Assembly: GCA_036568005.1 (NCBI GenBank)
Contig: DATCTJ010000026.1
Coordinates: 4,142-68,141, forward strand
DNA length: 64,000 nucleotides
From: Lutibacter sp.
Lineage (GTDB): Bacteria > Bacteroidota > Bacteroidia > Flavobacteriales > Flavobacteriaceae
Direction of reading: 5' to 3'
Made by a program: the position numbers and the translations under genes. How positions within the stretch are numbered: the first letter of the stretch is position 1; each line of letters starts with the position of its first letter. Below are positions 3,404 through 62,087 of this stretch, piece by piece. The notes beneath the pieces were generated by a model. The model was not told the DNA's origin. It did no database searches and was given only the letters and a program-made list of their open reading frames with translations.

Positions 3404-3518
3404 AGATGAAACGAGCCATAACAAATTTTGATACACTGCAGAATGATTAATGGCGAACCCGCCTACCGCAGGCAGGTCGCATCTGTACCAATAGAAAATA
3501 AAAAATAAACAGATGAAA
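3404..3518 (+). repeat. Intra-operonic repeat unit, copy A (with 20-22-nt GC palindrome), bounded by AGATGAAA at both ends
   Basis: Aligns base-for-base with 58378-58492 and 61993-62087. The 3' AGATGAAA contains the ATG (3513) of the downstream lipoprotein gene. Confidence 0.8.
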
Positions 3519-10138: not shown

Positions 10139-13100
10139 TTATATTTTTTGAAGCGTTGCCAAAGCTTTATTTATGGAAGTAATTTTATCAAACGTTAACA
10201 AAAGTCGTAACCCATTTTTCGTTTCTTTTTCTTTTATGCTGCACCCGAGCGGATTTTGCTGAACAAATTGTAAAACTTTTGTAAAAACAGGTGTTTGGTA
10301 AAAAGAACTTTGTTGATTGGAAACAAAATAACCAATCATTTTATTTTTTTTCAGAACAATACGTTCTAAACCTAATGATTTGGCAATCCATTTTATGCGA
10401 ACACTGTTTAACAGATCCACCACTTGAACAGGAAGTTCTCCAAATCGATCAATCAATTCCAGTTCAAATTTTTGCAATTCATCTTCGGTTTTAAGTTCAC
10501 TTAATTTGGTGTATAAATTTAGGCGTTCGGATATCACATTGATATAATCATCTGGAAAAAGAATTTCAAAATCGGTGTCAATCTGAATGTCTTTTACATA
10601 ATCTTTCGGCTTTTCATCCTGTTCTTTATACAATTCTTTAAACTCATTTTCCTTCAGTTCCTCAATGGTTTCATTCAATATTTTCTGATAGGTTTCAAAA
10701 CCGATATCATTGATAAATCCGCTTTGTTCCCCACCCAATAAATCGCCTGCACCGCGAATTTCCAAATCTTTCATGGCAATTTGAATCCCGCTACCCAATT
10801 CGGTAAACAATTCAATGGCCTGAATGCGTTTTCGGGCATCATCAGTCATCATATGGTACGGAGGGGTAATAAAATAACAAAACGCTTTTTTGTTTGATCG
10901 CCCAACGCGTCCGCGCATTTGGTGCAAATCGGACAAGCCAAAATTGTTGGCGTTGTTGATAAAAATGGTGTTTGCGTTTGGCACATCCAAACCGCTTTCA
11001 ACAATGGTTGTGGAAACCAACACGTCAAATTCATTGTTGATAAAACCAAGCATCAAGCCTTCCAGCTTTTTGCCATCCATTTGTCCGTGGCCAATTCCAA
11101 TTTTTGCATCGGGAACCAATCGCTGCAACATTCCGGCAACTTCTTTAATGTTTTCGATGCGGTTATGAATAAAAAATACTTGTCCGCCCCGCTGAATTTC
11201 ATAGCGAATAGCATCTCGAATCACTTCTTCACTAAAACGGATCACATTGCTTTCAATGGGAACACGATTTGGTGGCGGTGTGTTGATGACCGATAAATCG
11301 CGCGCCGCCATTAATGAAAACTGCAAGGTTCTCGGGATTGGCGTTGCTGTAAGCGTTAAGGTATCAATATTTTCTTTTAAAGTTTTCAATTTATCTTTAA
11401 CGGCCACGCCAAATTTTTGTTCTTCATCAACAATTAACAAGCCTAGATCTTTGTATTTTATTACCGGATTGGTAAGTTGATGTGTTCCTATCACAATGTC
11501 AACTGACCCATCTTCCAATCCTTTCAGCACAGCTTTTCTTTGATTGGCGGTCCTAAATCGGTTTAAATATTCTACGGTAACCGGAAAATCCTTTAATCGT
11601 TCTGTAAAGGTTTTAAAATGCTGAAAAGCTAAAATAGTGGTTGGTACCAAAATAGCAACTTGTTTCCCATTATCAACAGCTTTAAAAGCGGCCCTGATGG
11701 CAACTTCTGTTTTTCCGAAACCTACATCTCCACAAACCAAACGATCCATTGGGCGTTCATTTTCCATGTCACTTTTCACATCTTGGGTTGATGAAGATTG
11801 ATCTGGTGTGTCTTCGTACAAAAAGCTGGCTTCCAGTTCATGCTGCAAATAACTGTCTGGACGGTATTGAAAACCTTTTTGCATTTTGCGTTTCGCGTAC
11901 AATTCAATCAAATTGAAGGCAATATGTCTAATGCGCGATTTTGTTTTTTGTTTTAATGCTTTCCAGGCGCCGGAACCCAACTTATGCAATTTAGGTGCAG
12001 TGCCGTCTTTGCCGTTATATTTGGCAATTTTATGAAGTGAATGAATGCTGATGTATAAAATATCCCGATCACCATAAATCAATTTAATGGCTTCTTGCTG
12101 TTTGCCTTCGACATCAATTTTTTGAAGTCCGCCAAATTTCCCGATGCCGTGGTCAATATGCGTCACATAATCGCCAATTTCAAGATTGGTCAATTCTTTT
12201 AAGGTGATGGTTTGTTTTTTGGCATAGCCGTTTTTTAAGCGGAACTTATGATAACGCTCAAAAATTTGATGATCGGTATAACAAACCAATTTATTTTCTT
12301 CATCAATAAATCCTTGAAACAATGGAAAAACGAGGGTTGTATATTCCAATTCCTTGTCGAGGTCGCTAAAAATATCGTGAAAACGATCGGCTTGTTTTTG
12401 TGAATCGCAAAACAGATAATTTTTATAGCCATTTTCGCTATTTTGATGAAAATTTTCAACAAGTAAATTGAATTGTTTATTGAATGATGGTTGTGGTTTT
12501 GTGTTGAAGATCACAAGGTCATGCTGAACCTGCCTTGCCGGCAGGCAGGCTTGTTTCAACATCTTTTCATTTGATTTTGAATCGTCTTGAGAAAGCCTTG
12601 CATTCACAATTTCAACCAAAGAAAAAGTCTGTAATTCTTTTTTTATGAGGTCGCCATCACAAAAAAGTTCATTTGGTTTTGCGTGATTTAAAGCCGAAGA
12701 CAAATCTTTAAAAGCGATTTCTGCCTTGCCAAAAAGGTTGTCCAGGGTATTATAAAGCAGGTTTAAATCTTTAGCAAAAACAATGGTTTTATCAGAAATG
12801 TATTTTAAAAAACTGTCTCTTTTTTCAGTTAGTGCTTTATTTTCAACATTGGGCATTATGCCAATTTTATTTATTTTTTCTGTCGAAAGTTGCGTTTCAA
12901 CATCAAAAGTACGGATGCTTTCCACTTCATCATCAAAAAACTCAATACGATAAGGTTCATCATTCGAAAAAGAAAAGACATCAATAATACCGCCTCTAGT
13001 AGAAAATTCTCCTGGCTCACTTACAAAATCCACTCGGTTAAATTGGTATTCAAACAAAACCTCATTCACAAAATCTAAACTCAGTTTATCATTGACACTA

Positions 13101-13561
13101 ATTTTTAAAGTGTTTCGGTTTAACTCTGCCTTAGTGACAACCTGTTCAAAAAGCGCTTCAGGATAAGTGACAATAATTGCCGGTTTTTTACGAGAATTAA
13201 TTCGGTTTAAAACTTCTGAACGTAACAAAACATTGGCGTTGTCGGTTTCTTCTATTTGATAAGGCCTTCGGTAGGAACCCGGATAGAAAAGCACATCCTT
13301 ATCGTTTAAAAGTAGCTCCAAATCATTTAAATAATAGGCAGCTTCTTCTTTATCATCAAAGATTAACAAAAATGGTTTGTCAACTTTTTTAAAACTTTCA
13401 GAAATAACAAAAGACAATGACGATCCAACCAAATTCGAAATTTGAAAATGGTGATTATCCTTTCGTAATAGTGGAACCAACTGTTTTTGCTCAACAATTT
13501 GTCCGTAAATTTTAACAATAGCTTGTTTGCTCAAATTTGCAAATTTTGCCAAAGGTAGCAT
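10139..13561 (-). CDS. mfd: Transcription-repair coupling factor Mfd
   Basis: Superfamily-2 helicase motifs (GDVGFGKTEVA, LLIVDEEQKFG, TLTATPIPRT, QMRGRVGRS) and a CarD-like domain (GDYVTHIDHGIGKF). Start set at the ATG at 13561 (MLPLAKFAN); the 78-codon upstream extension in the ORF track has no Mfd-like sequence. Confidence 0.95.
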   Translation of the reverse strand: MLPLAKFANLSKQAIVKIYGQIVEQKQLVPLLRKDNHHFQISNLVGSSLSFVISESFKKVDKPFLLIFDDKEEAAYYLNDLELLLNDKDVLFYPGSYRRPYQIEETDNANVLLRSEVLNRINSRKKPAIIVTYPEALFEQVVTKAELNRNTLKISVNDKLSLDFVNEVLFEYQFNRVDFVSEPGEFSTRGGIIDVFSFSNDEPYRIEFFDDEVESIRTFDVETQLSTEKINKIGIMPNVENKALTEKRDSFLKYISDKTIVFAKDLNLLYNTLDNLFGKAEIAFKDLSSALNHAKPNELFCDGDLIKKELQTFSLVEIVNARLSQDDSKSNEKMLKQACLPARQVQHDLVIFNTKPQPSFNKQFNLLVENFHQNSENGYKNYLFCDSQKQADRFHDIFSDLDKELEYTTLVFPLFQGFIDEENKLVCYTDHQIFERYHKFRLKNGYAKKQTITLKELTNLEIGDYVTHIDHGIGKFGGLQKIDVEGKQQEAIKLIYGDRDILYISIHSLHKIAKYNGKDGTAPKLHKLGSGAWKALKQKTKSRIRHIAFNLIELYAKRKMQKGFQYRPDSYLQHELEASFLYEDTPDQSSSTQDVKSDMENERPMDRLVCGDVGFGKTEVAIRAAFKAVDNGKQVAILVPTTILAFQHFKTFTERLKDFPVTVEYLNRFRTANQRKAVLKGLEDGSVDIVIGTHQLTNPVIKYKDLGLLIVDEEQKFGVAVKDKLKTLKENIDTLTLTATPIPRTLQFSLMAARDLSVINTPPPNRVPIESNVIRFSEEVIRDAIRYEIQRGGQVFFIHNRIENIKEVAGMLQRLVPDAKIGIGHGQMDGKKLEGLMLGFINNEFDVLVSTTIVESGLDVPNANTIFINNANNFGLSDLHQMRGRVGRSNKKAFCYFITPPYHMMTDDARKRIQAIELFTELGSGIQIAMKDLEIRGAGDLLGGEQSGFINDIGFETYQKILNETIEELKENEFKELYKEQDEKPKDYVKDIQIDTDFEILFPDDYINVISERLNLYTKLSELKTEDELQKFELELIDRFGELPVQVVDLLNSVRIKWIAKSLGLERIVLKKNKMIGYFVSNQQSSFYQTPVFTKVLQFVQQNPLGCSIKEKETKNGLRLLLTFDKITSINKALATLQKI
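12529..12550. repeat. GC-rich palindrome (CCTGCCTTGCCGGCAGGCAGGC) inside the mfd coding sequence
   Basis: 17 of 22 nt are G/C in AT-rich coding DNA. It contains the perfect palindrome TGCCGGCA flanked by CCTGCC/GGCAGG and matches the palindromes at 3457-3478, 32159-32178, 41094-41111 and 58430-58451. It is read in frame as ACLPARQ. Confidence 0.7.
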
Positions 13562-19861: not shown

Positions 19862-20650
19862 ATGAAACATGTAAAAATTGCCTTTTTGGCTTTGTTATTA
19901 ATTGTATCCTGTCGTACTACTAAAGACACCAGTAATGCCCAGAATATACACGATGCCGATAATGACGGCGTTGAAGATTGTAGAGATAGATGTCCAAATG
20001 TACCTGGTTTAGCTAAATTTTACGGTTGCCCTGATACAGATGGAGACGGGATTGAAGACAGTAAAGATAGATGCCCAGAAGTTGCGGGTTCAAAACTATT
20101 ACAAGGTTGCCCAGATAGAGATGGAGACGGTACTCCAGATATAGACGATGCTTGTCCAGATGTTCCTGGTCCAAAAACAAATGCAGGTTGTCCATTTAAA
20201 GATACTGATGGAGATGGTGTAATTGACTTAATTGACAGATGTGTAACTGTAAAAGGTCCAGCTTCAAATTATGGTTGTCCAGTGATACCAGGTCAAGAGA
20301 TTATGACTCAATTGAATGAGTATGGAAGAACTATTTTGTTTGATACCGCTAAATGGACTTTCAAACAAGAGTCTTATTCTGTTTTACAGCCGATGACAAC
20401 AATATTAAAAGAATACCCAGACGCTGATTTTGTAATTGAAGGTCATACTGACAGTGTTGGTTCAGATCAATCTAATCAGTTATTATCTGAAAGAAGAGCA
20501 AATGCAGTTAAAGACTATTTCATCGCAAATGGCATCAGTGTAGACAGATTAACAACAAAAGCTTTTGGAGAAAGTAAACCTATTGACACTAATGACACGC
20601 CTGCAGGTAGAGCAAACAACAGACGTACTGAAGTTAAATTAGCAGAATAA
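19862..20650 (+). CDS. OmpA-family lipoprotein: thrombospondin type-3 repeats plus OmpA C-terminal domain, no barrel
   Basis: Lipobox LLIVS-C, four to five D-x-D-x-D-G/CP repeats ([57 protein letters not shown]), and an OmpA_C motif ([23 protein letters not shown] ... NRRTEV). Confidence 0.85.
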   Translation: MKHVKIAFLALLLIVSCRTTKDTSNAQNIHDADNDGVEDCRDRCPNVPGLAKFYGCPDTDGDGIEDSKDRCPEVAGSKLLQGCPDRDGDGTPDIDDACPDVPGPKTNAGCPFKDTDGDGVIDLIDRCVTVKGPASNYGCPVIPGQEIMTQLNEYGRTILFDTAKWTFKQESYSVLQPMTTILKEYPDADFVIEGHTDSVGSDQSNQLLSERRANAVKDYFIANGISVDRLTTKAFGESKPIDTNDTPAGRANNRRTEVKLAE

Positions 20651-20678
20651 CAGGTTGTAAATTTATATATAACATTCT

Positions 20679-20716
20679 AATCGCCTAAAAGTTTAACATT
20701 TAGGCGATTTTTTTTG
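20679..20716 (+). terminator. Rho-independent terminator
   Basis: AATCGCCTAAA / TTTAGGCGATT, an 11-bp stem, followed by a T run. Confidence 0.7.
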
Positions 20717-20857
20717 CGTAAAACATATTAATAATCTAATTTTAAATAAGAAATACAGAAAATTAAAATCTGAAAGTTATATTTTTTGAATAAATGATAA
20801 GAATAGCATAACTTTGCTAATAAGTAAAAAAAAGAATATTAATTAATTTTTATAAAA

Positions 20858-22216
20858 ATGAAACATTTAAAAATTGCCATGCTGGCTTTATTTCTAATTA
20901 CTGGTTTAAGTAATCTAAACGCACAAGACAAAAATAACCCCTGGGCTATTGGTATTGGCGTAAACGCAGTAGATTTTTACCCTACAAATGCTCTTGGCAG
21001 TTGGGGTGATGAGTTTTTTAACATAGGAGACCATTATAATATACTTCCTGCCATATCAAGAATAACTGTCGGTAAATATTTGGAGGATGGCTTTACTATT
21101 GAAGGAACAGGTTCTTTGAACCAAATTTCCAAAATTGGAGACAAAAGCGTTAGTGATTTAATGTATGTTGGTTTAGATGGCGCTTTAAAGTACGACCTAA
21201 ACTATGTCATAGGAGAAACAGGATGGTTTGATCCTTATGTTTTAGTTGGTGGAGGTTACACTTGGATAGATAAATTCGGAACAGCTACTGTAAATGGTGG
21301 TGGTGGAATTAATTTTTGGTTTAGTGATAATATTGGTTTAAATGTTGAGTCTAAATACAAACATTCATTTAACAGCGATAATGTTTTAAGACACTTTCAA
21401 CATTCTGTTGGGATTGTATTAAAATTTGGAGGAACAGACACAGATGGTGATGGTGTTTACGATAAAGATGATGCTTGTCCAGATGTATTCGGATTGGCGG
21501 CATATAATGGTTGTCCTGATACTGATGGTGATGGCGTTATTGATTCAAAAGACGATTGCCCTACTGTAGCAGGTTTAGCAGCTTTAAATGGTTGTCCAGA
21601 TGCTGATGGTGATGGAATTGCAGATAAAGATGACGCTTGTCCAAATGAGAAAGGAACTAAAGCAAACAAAGGTTGTCCAGATACTGACGGAGATGGAGTT
21701 GTTGATAAAGATGATGCTTGTCCAACCGTAGCCGGTCCAGCCGCAAATAAAGGTTGCCCTTGGCCAGATACTGACGGAGATGGTGTTACAGATAATATAG
21801 ACAAATGCCCAACTGTTGCTGGTCCAGCTTCAAATGATGGATGTCCTGTAGAACCAACTGTTGAGGTTATGGCAACATTGAATGAATATGCAAAAACTAT
21901 TTTATTTGATACAGGAAAAGCAACTTTCAAAAAACAAGCTGTGGATGTATTAAAAGCAATGACAACAATTTTCAAGGAATATCCACAAGCTGATTTTGTA
22001 ATTGCTGGTCATACTGACAGCGTTGGTTCTGATAGATCAAACCAATTATTGTCTGAAAGAAGAGCTGCTGCAGTTAGAGATTATTTAATCTCAAATGGTA
22101 TCAATGCTGATAGATTGACAACTGTAGGTTTTGGAGAAAGCAAACCAGTTGACACTAATAATACAGCCGCAGGCCGTCAAAATAACAGACGTACAGAGGT
22201 TACTTTAAAAAAGTAA
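20858..22216 (+). CDS. OmpA-family outer-membrane protein: beta-barrel plus thrombospondin type-3 repeats plus OmpA C-terminal domain
   Basis: Signal peptide, barrel homologous to 14680-15309, six DTDGDG/CP repeats, and [23 protein letters not shown] ... NRRTEV. Confidence 0.9.
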
Positions 22217-32445: not shown

Positions 32446-32529
32446 GCCTCGATGGCGGAATTGGTAGACGCGCTGGATTCAAAATCCAGTTTTCGCAAGG
32501 AAGTGTGGGTTCGATTCCCACTCGAGGTA
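32446..32529 (+). tRNA. tRNA-Leu (anticodon CAA), class II with long variable arm, no encoded CCA
   Basis: Manual fold: acceptor GCCTCGA/TCGAGGT, anticodon stem CTGGA/TCCAG with loop TTCAAAA, variable arm TTTC-GCAA-GGAA, T arm GTGGG-TTCGATT-CCCAC, discriminator A. Confidence 0.9.
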
Positions 32530-35321: not shown

Positions 35322-37298
35322 TTATTCCCACTTCAAATCATCAATATAATAAATGTCACTTGCCGTTCCGTCTGATGCTCCTCCATTGAAAAATAAGACT
35401 ATTTTTTTATGATTTGCCGCAGCTTGGTCACTAAAATCGAAGGTATATTCCGTCCAGGCATTTGAGGTAGTAATAGCTCCCCAAACTTCTTTGGCACCAG
35501 AAGTTCCTCCTTCTAATTTGGCCAATAAAGGCACTGCTTTTGAAGACCATATCTTAATTTTCAGTTTATTTTTTGTCGACAAATTAATTGCGGCTCCAAG
35601 ATCAAACACTAAAGCATCCCAGGCATCTGTGCCATTATCAATTACTTTTAAAACAGCATTACTTGTATTAATACCTGTTTTTGAAGGATTCGTAACAATT
35701 TCTGTTGTGATACAGCATACCACCGCATAATTTTGTTGACATTCAAAATTATTTACAATGCTTAAATCTGGAATCACACCAGCACAAGGATCATATGCCG
35801 CAAACCTGATGTCATCAATATAATAAACATCTGATGCGGTTCCGTCATTTTGTCCACCGTTGAAAAATAGCACTATTTTTTGATGGTTTGCAGTAGCCTG
35901 ATCACTAAAATCAAAGACGTACTCTGTCCAGATTCCCGTTTCAGTAATTGCGCCCCAAACTTCTTTAGCTCCTGAAGTTCCTCCTTCTAATTTAGCCAAT
36001 AAAGGTACTGCCCTCGTTGATAATATTTTAATTCTCAGGTAGTTTTTTGTTGACAAATCTATTGATCCGCCAAAATCAAATACCAAAGCATCCCAGGCAT
36101 CGGTGCCATTATCTGTTACTTTTAGTACTGAATCACTTGTATTTATGCCACTTGGATCTGGATTTTCAACAATTGAATTGGTTATATATCCTGGAATGGT
36201 TGAATTTTGCTGACAATTAAAATCGTTTATAATACTTGGGTCTTTAATTACACCATTACAAGGATCTGTAACTTCCCCAAATTTTAAGTCATCTATATAA
36301 TAAACATCTTCGCCATTTGTGTCAACTCCTGCATTAAAGAAAAGCACTAATTTTTGATGATTTGCATTGGCCTCACTGCTGAAATCAAATGAATATTCTT
36401 TCCATTCTCCAGTAGTTGTAATATTGACATCTTTTTCAATTCCGGCTGATGTGCCGCCTTCCAGTTTTGCTTTTAAAACACCTTCAACTGGTGCAAGCAC
36501 TTTTATTTTGAAGGTATTGTGCGTGGTTAAATTTATTGGCGCACCAAAATCAATAATTACAGCATCCCATGCCCCTGTTTCATCAACATATTTTCCTGAG
36601 AATTTACTACCGTTTATGTTATTTTTGTTAGGTGTTGCGGTAAGTTCTACTTCAGGTACATCCTGATTTTGCTGACAGTCAAAATCATTTATGATATTTA
36701 AATCCTCTGCAACACCAGCACAAGGATCTATTGAAGTATCCCATCTTAAATCATCAATATAATATACATCAGCACCACTTGTATCAGCACCAGCATTAAA
36801 AAATAACACCAATTTTTGATGATTTTGATTGAACTGACTACTGAAATCGAAAGAATATTCCACCCAATTGGTTGTGTTTGAAATGGTGGCATCAACCTCT
36901 ATTCCTCCAGAAGTACCACCTTCCAGTTTTGCTTTTAAAGTACCTGCAACATTTGTTTGCACCTTGATTTTAAAAGTGTTTTTTGTTGAAAGATTTATAG
37001 GAGCACCATAATCTATAATTAATGCATCCCAAGCACCTGAAGGATCTATGTATTTTCCAACAAATCTACTCGTGTTGAGACCTGACCAATCTGGATTATA
37101 AACAGCTTCAACATCTGGAAGAATCATATTATCCTGACATTCAAAATCGTTGATAATGGAAGGATCGGCAGTTTCCGGAGTTTCACATGGTACAGATTCA
37201 ATTATTGGATAATAAGTGTCTTCGTTGCATGATGCCATACTTATTATCAACAGCATAACAAGCAATAAATTAGTTGGTTTAAATTTGAAAGTTTTCAT
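35322..37298 (-). CDS. Surface lipoprotein made of four tandem ~155-aa CBM-like beta-sandwich repeats (candidate surface glycan-binding protein of the PUL)
   Basis: Lipobox IISMAS-C. There are four colinear repeats, each with DPC-x-GV ... IINDF-x-CQQN ... AWDA ... FG ... INL-x-TKN ... KAKLEGGTS-G ... W-x-EY-x-FDFS ... NH-x-K-x-VLFFN-x-G ... YYIDD. Confidence 0.7.
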   Translation of the reverse strand: MKTFKFKPTNLLLVMLLIISMASCNEDTYYPIIESVPCETPETADPSIINDFECQDNMILPDVEAVYNPDWSGLNTSRFVGKYIDPSGAWDALIIDYGAPINLSTKNTFKIKVQTNVAGTLKAKLEGGTSGGIEVDATISNTTNWVEYSFDFSSQFNQNHQKLVLFFNAGADTSGADVYYIDDLRWDTSIDPCAGVAEDLNIINDFDCQQNQDVPEVELTATPNKNNINGSKFSGKYVDETGAWDAVIIDFGAPINLTTHNTFKIKVLAPVEGVLKAKLEGGTSAGIEKDVNITTTGEWKEYSFDFSSEANANHQKLVLFFNAGVDTNGEDVYYIDDLKFGEVTDPCNGVIKDPSIINDFNCQQNSTIPGYITNSIVENPDPSGINTSDSVLKVTDNGTDAWDALVFDFGGSIDLSTKNYLRIKILSTRAVPLLAKLEGGTSGAKEVWGAITETGIWTEYVFDFSDQATANHQKIVLFFNGGQNDGTASDVYYIDDIRFAAYDPCAGVIPDLSIVNNFECQQNYAVVCCITTEIVTNPSKTGINTSNAVLKVIDNGTDAWDALVFDLGAAINLSTKNKLKIKIWSSKAVPLLAKLEGGTSGAKEVWGAITTSNAWTEYTFDFSDQAAANHKKIVLFFNGGASDGTASDIYYIDDLKWE

Positions 37299-58377: not shown

Positions 58378-58492
58378 AAATGAAACGAGCATTACAAATT
58401 TTGATACACAAGGGGATGATTAATGGCGAACCTACCTGCGGCAGGCAGGCAGCATCTGTTACCAATAATAAATAAAATTTAAACAGATGAAA
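58378..58492 (+). repeat. Intra-operonic repeat unit, copy B (with GC palindrome)
   Basis: Colinear with 3404-3518. It ends in AGATGAAA, which supplies the ATG at 58487. Confidence 0.8.
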
Positions 58493-60882: not shown

Positions 60883-61950
60883 ATGTATCAAATAGAGGAA
60901 CCGACATATTTTTATTATTTGGCAATTATCCCCGCAATAATTGTGCTGTTTCTTTTGGTGCTTTGGTGGAAATCACGCATTCAAAAGCGATTTGCAGATC
61001 ACAAATTAATAAAAAAATTAAGTCCGGAAAAATCAACCTTTAAATCGTTTTTAAAGTTATTTGTTTTTTGTTTTGCCCTGTTCTTTTTAATTATATCATT
61101 GGCAAACCCTAAAATGGGAACAAAATTAGAAACAGTTAAACGCGAAGGTGTTGATATTGTTTTTGCTTTGGATGTTTCAAAAAGTATGGAGGCCGAAGAT
61201 ATTGCGCCAAACCGGTTGGAAAAAGCCAAGCAAATTATCACAAAAGTGATAGAAAACTTGGGAAGCGACCGCATAGGAATTATTATTTATGCAGGAAGTT
61301 CGTATCCGCTGCTTCCAATCACAACGGATTATGCCGCGGCAAAGATGTTTTTGCAAAATGCAAACACAGAGATGGTTTCCAATCAAGGAACAGCTATAAA
61401 TGACGCAATTGATCGCGCACTTTCTTATTATGACAATGATGAGCAAACCAACCGATTTCTTGTGATAGTTTCAGATGGTGAAGACCACGAAGAAAACACC
61501 ATGGAATTGGCTAAAGAAGCTGCGGAAAAAGGAATAAAAATTTATACTGTGGGCATTGGAACTGCAAAAGGAGGCCCTATTCCAATTAGGGAGAACGGAA
61601 GGGTTGTTGCTTATAAAAAGAACAATAAAGGAGCGGTGGTTGTCACCCAAATGAATGAACAAGTTTTAAGGGATATTGCCATCGCTGGAAAAGGAAAATA
61701 CATAAATGGAAATAAAACGCAGGAAACCATTGAAATTATTAAAGAAGTTTTGAAAAAAGCCGAAAAAAACGAGTTTGAGACCAAACAATTTTCAGATTAT
61801 GAAGATCAGTTTCAGTGGTTTGTGGGCATTGGTTTATTGTTGTTAATTATTGACGTAATATTACTTGAAAAGAAAACAAAATGGATTCAAAAACTAAATT
61901 TATTTAATGAAAAGAGCCTCACAGCTGATGATACAAAAAGGAATGACTAA
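60883..61950 (+). CDS. batB: VWA-domain membrane protein BatB
   Basis: TM segments, MIDAS motif DVSKSM, VSDGEDHE, and a C-terminal TM segment. Confidence 0.85.
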   Translation: MYQIEEPTYFYYLAIIPAIIVLFLLVLWWKSRIQKRFADHKLIKKLSPEKSTFKSFLKLFVFCFALFFLIISLANPKMGTKLETVKREGVDIVFALDVSKSMEAEDIAPNRLEKAKQIITKVIENLGSDRIGIIIYAGSSYPLLPITTDYAAAKMFLQNANTEMVSNQGTAINDAIDRALSYYDNDEQTNRFLVIVSDGEDHEENTMELAKEAAEKGIKIYTVGIGTAKGGPIPIRENGRVVAYKKNNKGAVVVTQMNEQVLRDIAIAGKGKYINGNKTQETIEIIKEVLKKAEKNEFETKQFSDYEDQFQWFVGIGLLLLIIDVILLEKKTKWIQKLNLFNEKSLTADDTKRND

Positions 61951-62087
61951 TGGCGAATAGCAGCTGTACCAACAAAAAAATAAAATATAAACAGATGAAA
62001 CGAGCCATAACAAATTCTGATACACAGCAGAATGATAAATGGCGACTGCATCTGTATAAATAAAAAATAAAATATAAAGAGATGAAA
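61929..62087 (+). repeat. Intra-operonic repeat, 1.5 tandem units (C1 partial, C2 full), both lacking the GC palindrome
   Basis: 61993-62087 is colinear with copy A except for a 20-nt deletion at the palindrome site. 61929-62000 matches the 3' two-thirds of the unit. Confidence 0.75.

Follow-up and report, generated by a model that had tools for sequence, protein, structure and literature searches.

A short repeat at start codons in Lutibacter is probably a mobile element that integrates at (G)ATGAAA

A 64,000-nt stretch of DNA from Lutibacter sp. (GenBank assembly GCA_036568005.1, contig DATCTJ010000026.1, positions 4,142 to 68,141 of the forward strand; called the window below) raises the question of how one short, non-coding repeat comes to stand directly in front of functionally unrelated genes. 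An earlier note, made from the letters of this stretch alone, had described five copies of the repeat upstream of genes for secreted proteins. It had proposed either a unit resembling MITEs (miniature inverted-repeat transposable elements) that homes to start-codon contexts, or a portable 5' leader. Here we find that the repeat probably is, or recently was, a mobile, non-autonomous element without terminal inverted repeats (TIRs), which integrates in one orientation at the sequence (G)ATGAAA.

Direct reading, a repeat finder (families D5, D6, D10 and D11), a five-way alignment and hidden Markov models (HMMs) all recovered the five copies described before, four of them intact (A, B, C1 and C2) and one decayed (D). 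Note that our coordinates count both flanking ATGAAA repeats. Copy A, a long form, occupies 3406-3518 on the plus strand (nhmmer E=9e-20). It consists of ATGAAA (3406-3411), a conserved 5' module reaching to ~3457, a GC palindrome (3458-3476), an A-rich tail and a second ATGAAA (3513-3518), which is the start of a gene for a DUF4292 lipoprotein; the gene upstream encodes a TPR protein. Copy B, also a long form (58380-58492, plus strand), lies between MoxR-DUF58 and membrane protein-BatA, and its 3' ATGAAA (58487-58492) is the start of the next gene of this Bat/MoxR cluster. Two short-form copies on the plus strand, C1 (61907-62000) and C2 (61995-62087), stand head to tail between BatB and BatC with the ATGAAA at 61995-62000 in common, and the 3' ATGAAA of C2 (62082-62087) opens batC, which encodes a TPR protein. 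C1 had been taken for a partial copy (61929-62000), but is a full unit with a 1-nt deletion. Copy D, a long form on the minus strand (41163-41031), is found between a SusD gene and a gene for a GH144-like glucoamylase. Its 5' ATG now reads AGG, its 5' module is ~60% like the consensus and it has ~19 extra nt; it retains the A-rich tail and the ATGAAA with which the GH144-like gene starts (ATG at 41036-41034). Copy D is matched with only E=0.47 by an HMM of short-form copies, and with E=5e-7, over model positions 3-112, by an HMM of hairpin-bearing copies from other genomes. It is thus a real but decayed copy.

The similarity of these copies is not due to chance. The 16-mer core GAATGATTAATGGCGA, with 3 mismatches allowed, has 6 matches in the window against 1.2 expected (none of 100 shuffles reached 6), a 31-mer 5' block has 2 matches against 0 expected, and the 3' tail has 4 against 0.03, so that the conserved blocks lie far beyond chance. 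At all four sites (3513, 58487, 62082 and, on the minus strand, 41036) the downstream open reading frame (ORF) begins at the element's terminal ATG, and all four downstream proteins have a signal or lipoprotein-like N-terminus. The gene contexts agree with those originally reported.

Is the repeat restricted to this locus? A degenerate 28-nt pattern was scanned over one genome per species, and nhmmer was then run on the matched loci. The scan returned more than 114 stretches, and among the matches listed virtually all came from ~20 metagenome-assembled genomes (MAGs) of Lutibacter or Lutibacter-like Flavobacteriaceae, often with 2-5 matches per stretch spaced ~88 nt apart. All family counts given here rest on 827 kb, comprising 114 listed loci (MAG fragments, labelled L) and the window, for which the nearest DNA among the fetched loci is that of Lutibacter MAGs at 82-88% identity. 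In these 827 kb, nhmmer found 225 copies, essentially all of full length, with truncation only at contig or locus ends. They are distributed over 140 sites, with one unit at 87, two at 33, three at 12, four at 6 and six at 2. Thus, the family is genus-wide. Scanning viral contigs with the family pattern gave 0 matches, hence no sign of a phage vehicle. Copies within ~100 nt of MAG contig ends are far more frequent than expected (for example in L004, L017, L019, L029, L038, L045, L062, L066, L067 and L075), which suggests that the family fragments short-read assemblies of these genomes.

We read the anatomy of the unit from an alignment of 107 distinct short-form copies. The unit is 87-88 nt long in its basic form (87-113 bp over the whole range), non-coding, AT-rich and not palindromic. 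Every unit opens with ATGAAACGAGC and closes with an A-rich tail followed by ACAG/ATGAAA. The conserved 5' module reads ATGAAA-CGAGC(C)ATAACAAATTTTGATACA, a variable patch, and AATGATTAATGGCGAAC; the portion before the patch may also be written ATGAAACGAG(C)CATAACAAATTTTGATACA. The patch, 5-6 nt in length and hypervariable, splits a module whose primary sequence is very strongly conserved on either side. Behind the module is a slot, filled by AC(A/T)GCA(G/T)CTGT or by a larger palindrome or nested GC hairpin, and the 3' part continues with (T)ACC, the A-rich tail and ACAG/ATGAAA. The left part has the potential to form a 40-nt imperfect hairpin, and the right part an 11-nt palindrome or the nested GC hairpin, the two being unrelated in sequence. 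No TIRs were detected when the first 30 nt were compared with the reverse complement of the last 30 nt (score 5; shuffle mean 5.8). An 8-nt direct repeat had been proposed at both ends. A flanking target repeat is indeed present, but it is ATGAAA, 6 nt in length or 7 nt where G stands at -1 (G is found in the 5' flank at only ~1/3 of sites), and the AG preceding it belongs to the 3' end of the element. On the 3' side the repeat stops at ATGAAA, with positions +7 to +15 at background. ATGAAA is conserved at 106 of 119 5' ends and at 95 of 101 3' ends, the latter being the starts of downstream genes.

Evidence for insertion comes from comparing occupied and empty orthologous sites, a check that the earlier note had suggested. 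Ortholog pairs were collected by tblastn of downstream proteins against all fetched DNA, yielding ~11 independent filled/empty pairs. The boundaries are exact to the base: empty sites have one ATGAAA and filled sites have two. In one example, the empty site reads ...aaattaaa/ATGAAACGCGTAATT and the filled site ...aatttaaa/ATGAAACGAGCA...AAACAG/ATGAAACGCGTAATT. Copy A of the window is part of this set, its orthologous site in L114 being empty. In several of the empty orthologs, the second codon departs from the target (ATGGAG, ATGCAA or ATGAAG).

The occupied sites also reveal a preference beyond the hexamer. ATGAAA, encoding Met-Lys, is the commonest gene start in these AT-rich genomes, and all copies lie in one orientation, with (G)ATGAAA on the left flank. 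G was found at -1 in 34% of occupied sites, compared to 1% of unoccupied ATGAAA gene starts (p=2e-9); positions -2 to -10 were alike in both groups. At gene starts with other second codons, G occurs at -1 in 12-15%. The depletion of G at free ATGAAA starts relative to this value indicates that GATGAAA starts are nearly saturated, and 40 of the 41 GATGAAA starts are occupied. In the window, 16 of 49 genes start with ATGAAA; 4 of the 16 are occupied, and G at -1 is missing from all 12 that are free. The empty ortholog lacks G at -1 in four filled/empty pairs. We interpret the G as a target preference combined with saturation. The preferred target, GATGAAA, is identical to the element's own 3' end.

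We next consider where the copies stand relative to genes. The final ATG of 131 array-terminal copies opens an ORF of at least 100 aa in 87 cases, and 12 more frames leave the contig after at least 60 aa. Closed downstream frames reach at least 60 aa in 89 of 112 copies and at least 100 aa in 87 of 112, whereas an ORF of at least 100 aa begins at just 20% of ATGAAA sites picked at random. About 10 of the 23 copies followed by an ORF of less than 60 aa simply precede a unit of a second repeat family (family 2, described below), and among array-terminal copies without such a following unit, the last ATG opens the downstream gene in ~87%. Orientation and position are thus non-random, and these numbers, together with the filled/empty pairs, bear out the idea of homing to start-codon contexts in a fixed orientation. 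None of the findings that the earlier note had named as refuting its reading was made, as the arrangement is non-random, the ATGAAA ends are conserved and the family extends across the genus.

A few copies lie away from gene starts, for example one at the ...ATGAAATAA gene end in L087, one beside a convergent terminator in L088 and others in the L014 array. Such copies would be expected if insertion were blind to its target, hitting many A/T-rich sites of which only the harmless ones survived to produce the start-codon pattern. However, even these exceptions are flanked by ATGAAA, suggesting that the hexamer itself is recognised and that selection then removes harmful insertions. Moreover, the 5' ATGAAA is present in 106 of 119 copies even though the gene has no need of a decoy copy, and it is specifically GATGAAA starts that are depleted among unoccupied sites. 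Survivorship after target-blind insertion is therefore very unlikely to explain the pattern by itself. Selection certainly shapes where copies persist, but the hexamer is itself recognised.

The gene upstream of the array points the same way in 90 of 113 cases and is divergent in 20. Among the 90 co-directional arrays, 36 have the upstream stop overlapping the element or within 20 nt of it, and spacers range from overlap to more than 150 nt. Given the divergent neighbours and this wide range, the element marks gene starts rather than operon spacers as such, contrary to the former view that it always lies within operons. The suggested link to secreted proteins is correct for the four window sites and does not extend to the family: a hydrophobic N-terminus was found in 50% of downstream proteins, compared to 53% of background ORFs starting with Met-Lys and 33% of all ORFs. 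Thus, the signal-peptide association seen in the window follows from the Met-Lys target. The downstream genes are functionally unrelated, about half of their products are cytoplasmic, and clear cytoplasmic enzymes are common.

Could the family have spread only by local tandem duplication, as a variable-number tandem repeat (VNTR) generated by slippage without transposition? The head-to-tail arrays of 2-6 units, and a pair of units in L014 repeated with a 178-nt period, would be in line with such a process. However, 87 of the 140 sites have a single copy, more than 100 unrelated loci are occupied, the filled/empty pairs are exact, and array neighbours are no more alike (92.5% identical) than distant copies (91.7%). 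Tandem duplication as the sole explanation is hardly credible, and slippage probably changes array length as a secondary process.

What does the element do to the translation of its neighbours? The 5' ATGAAA is a decoy ATG that opens a short ORF, which nearly always ends within the element, 42-72 nt short of the gene start. In 125 of 181 copies, the first 60 nt contain a stop in each of the three frames, and almost all others have stops in two. The downstream ATGAAA serves as the gene start, behind the element's A-rich leader, which has no Shine-Dalgarno (SD) sequence. The proposal of a portable 5' leader is therefore true in effect, as the element brings both a leader and a start codon. In contrast, the mini-ORF that the earlier note had described does not encode a conserved peptide. 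Owing to a C indel in about half of the copies, it reads MKRA* or MKRAITNFDTQQND*, and lengths of 2 to 34 codons occur; MKRA* is found 47 times and 14-residue forms 56 times. If the genes on either side overlapped originally, the upstream one is now extended. The batB ORF (60883-61950) runs into C1, which encodes its last 11 codons and the TAA stop (61948-61950), adding 11 residues to BatB. Joining the flanks of C1/C2 in silico restores a shorter BatB, ...LFNEK*, with a stop that overlaps the batC start (ATGAAAAATAG).

Structure prediction indicated that the region from -20 to +12 is more open at element starts (0.67 unpaired) than at native ATGAAA starts (0.56; p=2e-9), while the AUG itself is more paired (0.36 vs 0.44 unpaired, p=0.02). 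The additional pairing occurs in copies with CATCTGT, which is complementary to ACAGATG. Pairing of this kind would be used by a host cis-regulatory RNA leader (an attenuator, thermometer or translational switch), in which CAUCUGU pairs with the upstream or the downstream ACAGAUG and thereby hides or exposes the start, perhaps through translation of the mini-ORF. Consistent with an RNA leader, single copies fold well (z=-6.0 for C2 and z=-3.6 for A), the proposed helices were paired in 92.6% of cells compared to 32-50% with the partners slid, and the 5' module is more conserved at orthologous sites than are synonymous sites. However, 0 compensatory changes were detected and covariation equalled that of the shuffled control. 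RNAalifold gave no consensus structure, and no Rfam family reached its gathering threshold (best permissive match E=3). In ~40% of copies the anti-start heptamer has a mismatch (CAGCUGU), and copies of the TCCCGAA-hairpin sub-type do not have it; the mini-ORF ranges from 2 to 34 codons, and the downstream genes have no common function. Furthermore, decayed or internally deleted copies (copy D, L057, L002, L007 and L095) have lost the 5' module and keep only the A-rich tail and ATGAAA, and the gene persists, which argues that it needs only the tail. A regulatory RNA leader is thus an unlikely explanation for the family.

The conserved module could alternatively act at the DNA level, as a dispersed promoter or operator cassette under one regulator, like Neisseria REP2/CREN. 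Its bipartite structure (TGATACA, ~6 variable nt, AATGATTAATGG) would then be a putative protein-binding site, in agreement with the very strong conservation on either side of the hypervariable 5-6 nt patch. By reading, the module also contains a -7-like box, AAATTTTG, which is one base off the Bacteroidetes -7 consensus, TAnnTTTG. A documented precedent exists in REP2 (PMC3184786). However, no -33 TTTG/TTG was read at the right distance in either the element or the tail, and many copies lie in tight operons or in arrays of up to six units, where there would be little point in further promoters or operators. In addition, the downstream genes are heterogeneous and decayed copies exist. We consider a promoter cassette quite unlikely.

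The GC palindrome can be separated from the unit that contains it. It is nested in the slot of copy A (CCCGCCTACCGCAGGCAGG, 3458-3476) and of copy B (CCTACCTGCGGCAGGCAGG, 58431-58449). The L010 ortholog of copy B is present but without the hairpin, and the comparison defines the slot as an exact 19-nt indel. The palindrome is sometimes tandemly doubled inside one unit. A solo palindrome, GAACCTGCCTTGCCGGCAGGCAGGC (12520-12551), is found in frame in the mfd/TRCF gene (ORF 10139-13561, minus strand), where it contributes ..KQACLPARQVQH.. to the linker that joins the UvrB-interaction and RID domains. This palindrome is related to the nested hairpin but does not belong to the 87-nt element. More solo AACCTGCC..GGCAGGTT hairpins stand outside the element at L074:5399, L101:4315, L109:2343, L065:2059 and L070:7141. 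These solo copies show that the GC hairpin is a REP-like palindrome dispersed in its own right; the fetched loci revealed neither a GTAG/CGTC tag on it nor a RAYT gene. In one MAG (PHDE01), a different hairpin (TCCCGAATTTTCGGGA; AGTCCCGAATTTTCGGGATT) fills the slot of CATCTGT or the GC palindrome in 10 of 26 copies (for example at L026:3470-3595, L039:1879, L042:128, L088, L094, L099, L103 and L114). This hairpin is absent elsewhere, which indicates lineage-specific amplification of a sub-family.

Family 2, which is absent from the window, consists of units of ~90 nt with an unrelated interior that start with ATGAAACGCCTACAACAG... and contain a central CGCCTA/TAGGCG-like stem. Like family 1, the family described so far, it has ATGAAACG at its 5' end, the A-rich tail and a terminal ATGAAA, and it too ends on gene starts. 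Family 2 units occur at L014:2453-2542 and 2631-2720 and in L012, L033, L036, L056, L064, L074, L081, L084, L097, L106 and L108. They interleave with family 1 units in tandem arrays, and it is a pair of one unit of each family that forms the 178-nt period of L014. A hybrid of the two families is present in L105. The arrays are thus heterogeneous, mixing different sub-types with family 2 units.

Several observations weigh against a mobile element. The filled/empty pairs are unrooted, so that gain and precise loss are both possible. A variable left junction is a possible alternative source of the G at -1 in one third of 5' junctions. Of 194 full copies, 189 are unique in sequence, and identity is only slightly higher within genomes (91.7%) than between genomes (89.3%), providing no direct sign of a very recent burst; collapse of identical repeats in MAG assemblies may, however, mask recent copies. 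Between orthologous occupied sites, the 5' modules have 93% identity, compared to 75% for adjacent synonymous third positions. Random, non-orthologous copies are likewise 89-92% identical. These values are most simply reconciled by recurrent insertion or turnover at targets that are saturated, with selection on the 5' module, and hence a host-level function, as a possible alternative. A crude search of the fetched DNA, which consists of MAG fragments, revealed no transposase or recombinase partner, and in 225 copies from these fragments no 5' module was separated from its tail by more than 130 nt, a spacing that a long autonomous form with these ends would show. Similarly, an HUH/Y1 motif regular expression run over the 1268 ORFs of all loci gave no candidate, a search too crude to count as absence. 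A local GC-skew test for the replication-strand bias of IS200/IS605-like elements revealed no enrichment among element-bearing genes (66% vs 80%), but is weak and confounded by coding-strand composition.

How might such a mobile element work? The comparisons show precise, full-length integration at the hexamer ATGAAA, in a single orientation and with GATGAAA strongly preferred, which leaves the motif on both sides. Each insertion regenerates the target, allowing new units, including those of family 2, to stack head to tail, and the independent REP-like GC hairpin can nest in the slot. The gene would remain intact after insertion, and copies at gene starts would be tolerated because the translation start is rebuilt from the element's own A-rich leader and start codon; copies elsewhere would be purged. 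We infer mobilisation by a sequence-specific enzyme acting in trans, which would recognise the conserved 5' module together with a core of the same sequence as the target. One candidate is a site-specific recombinase acting between the junction ...ACAG/ATGAAA/CG... and the target core; another is an HUH-type single-strand nuclease with the same recognition for element end and target. The identity of the target with the element end fits both models, and we hold any specific enzymology with low confidence only. Tentatively, and with considerably less assurance than the mobility of the unit itself, we suggest a putative, so far undescribed class of site-specific mobile DNA, 'start-codon homing' elements, which are TIR-less, integrate at (G)ATGAAA, rebuild the start codon with an SD-less leader and use gene starts as a safe haven. 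A dedicated enzyme would be exploited by the otherwise unrelated families 1 and 2 and their hybrids, which have in common ATGAAACG 5' ends and A-rich ATGAAA tails.

The closest described analogues are the Neisseria REP2 repeats, together with Borrelia IR-A/IR-B, and the mycobacterial MIRUs. REP2 and IR-A/B are TIR-less, form 5' stem-loops and lie directly upstream of genes, with a ribosome binding site as well as an ATG fused to the ORF; the mode of spread of REP2 is unknown (PMC3184786). The Lutibacter unit resembles REP2 in being small, intergenic and TIR-less, with potential 5' stem-loops and an ATG fused to the downstream ORF. Compared by description, and across different phyla, its 87 nt fall short of the 120-150 nt of REP2, and it is more abundant, with 4 intact copies and 1 decayed copy in the 64 kb of the window and occurrence in ~20 genomes, vs ~25 REP2 copies per Neisseria genome. 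It forms tandem arrays, opens at its 5' end with a second copy of the start motif, has a defined target, (G)ATGAAA, and shows exact filled/empty sites. Its leader is A-rich and SD-less where REP2 has a ribosome binding site, and in contrast to the REP2 promoter we read only the -7-like AAATTTTG and no -33 box. MIRUs are 40-100 bp long, often tandem, located in polycistronic spacers and co-oriented with genes; they have short ORFs that overlap the stop and start codons of flanking genes, and their filled/empty sites and direct repeats suggest insertion (PMC3184786). The Lutibacter unit is likewise tandem, co-oriented with genes, often in operon spacers and equipped with a short ORF. In contrast to MIRUs, which are GC-rich with imperfect TIRs, its short ORF ends inside the element and is not conserved, it supplies the start codon itself, and 20 of 113 arrays are outside operons.

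As to other mobile repeats, the unit resembles MITEs (Correia/NEMIS, Nezha) in being short, non-coding, dispersed in many copies, flanked by a short direct repeat and presumably co-transcribed with its neighbours. It differs in having no TIRs and a single orientation on an asymmetric 6-7 nt target, and no related insertion sequence (IS) was found in the fetched DNA. The designation as MITE-like thus holds for an inserted unit flanked by a target repeat, but not in the strict sense, which demands TIRs. The IS200/IS605 PATEs and the REP/REPIN-RAYT systems are similar in being TIR-less, orientation-specific beside a short motif, hairpin-containing and of single-strand-circle size, with a target that resembles the element end; the nested GC hairpin is itself REP-like. 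However, the unit does not have the two matching subterminal hairpins of PATEs, its palindrome lying ~35 nt from the 3' end. Unlike REP/REPIN sequences it is AT-rich and non-palindromic, and only its nested hairpin is REP-like, without the GTAG/CGTC tag. Reading frames are preserved as with the Rickettsia palindromic elements, given the in-frame hairpin in mfd and the 11 codons that C1 contributes to BatB, but the Rickettsia elements insert in coding regions and are translated, whereas the 87-nt unit precedes the coding region and ends upstream translation. An integron attC site was also considered and rejected, as the consensus RYYYAAC / GTTRRRY, read directly, is absent at the element ends. 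In the literature, we found no description of the family or of start-codon-targeting repeats in Flavobacteriaceae. The family is distinctive in its defined 6-7 nt start-codon target, its self-regenerating arrays and the existence of at least two sequence families with common termini.

The window contains other features. Seven Asp-rich repeats with 81-nt spacing, of thrombospondin type 3-like character (DTDGDG..D..D.CP), lie at 20021-21812 in two paralogous ORFs (19862-20650 and 20858-22216) with similar upstream regions and signal peptides. Four tandem repeats of ~465 nt, 73-78% identical, at 35338-37158 fall within a 658-aa ORF (35322-37298, minus strand) and presumably represent repeated protein domains. 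An 84-nt tRNA gene with a long variable arm is located at 32446-32529 (Rfam tRNA model, 60.8 bits).

In conclusion, the element appears to follow a safe-haven strategy that we have not found described, in which, instead of keeping clear of genes, it inserts at the start codon and puts its own in place. The family probably breaks MAG assemblies, given the copies at many contig ends, and its decoy ATGs and C-terminal extensions, such as the 11 residues of BatB, can mislead gene callers. Array length could serve strain typing in the way MIRU-VNTR does. If the enzyme is found, it would provide an orientation-specific integration system with a 6-7 nt target aimed at gene starts, a useful tool. For the biology of these bacteria, more than 100 genes have had their native leader swapped for a common A-rich leader, and thus constitute a natural experiment on SD-independent initiation in Bacteroidota.

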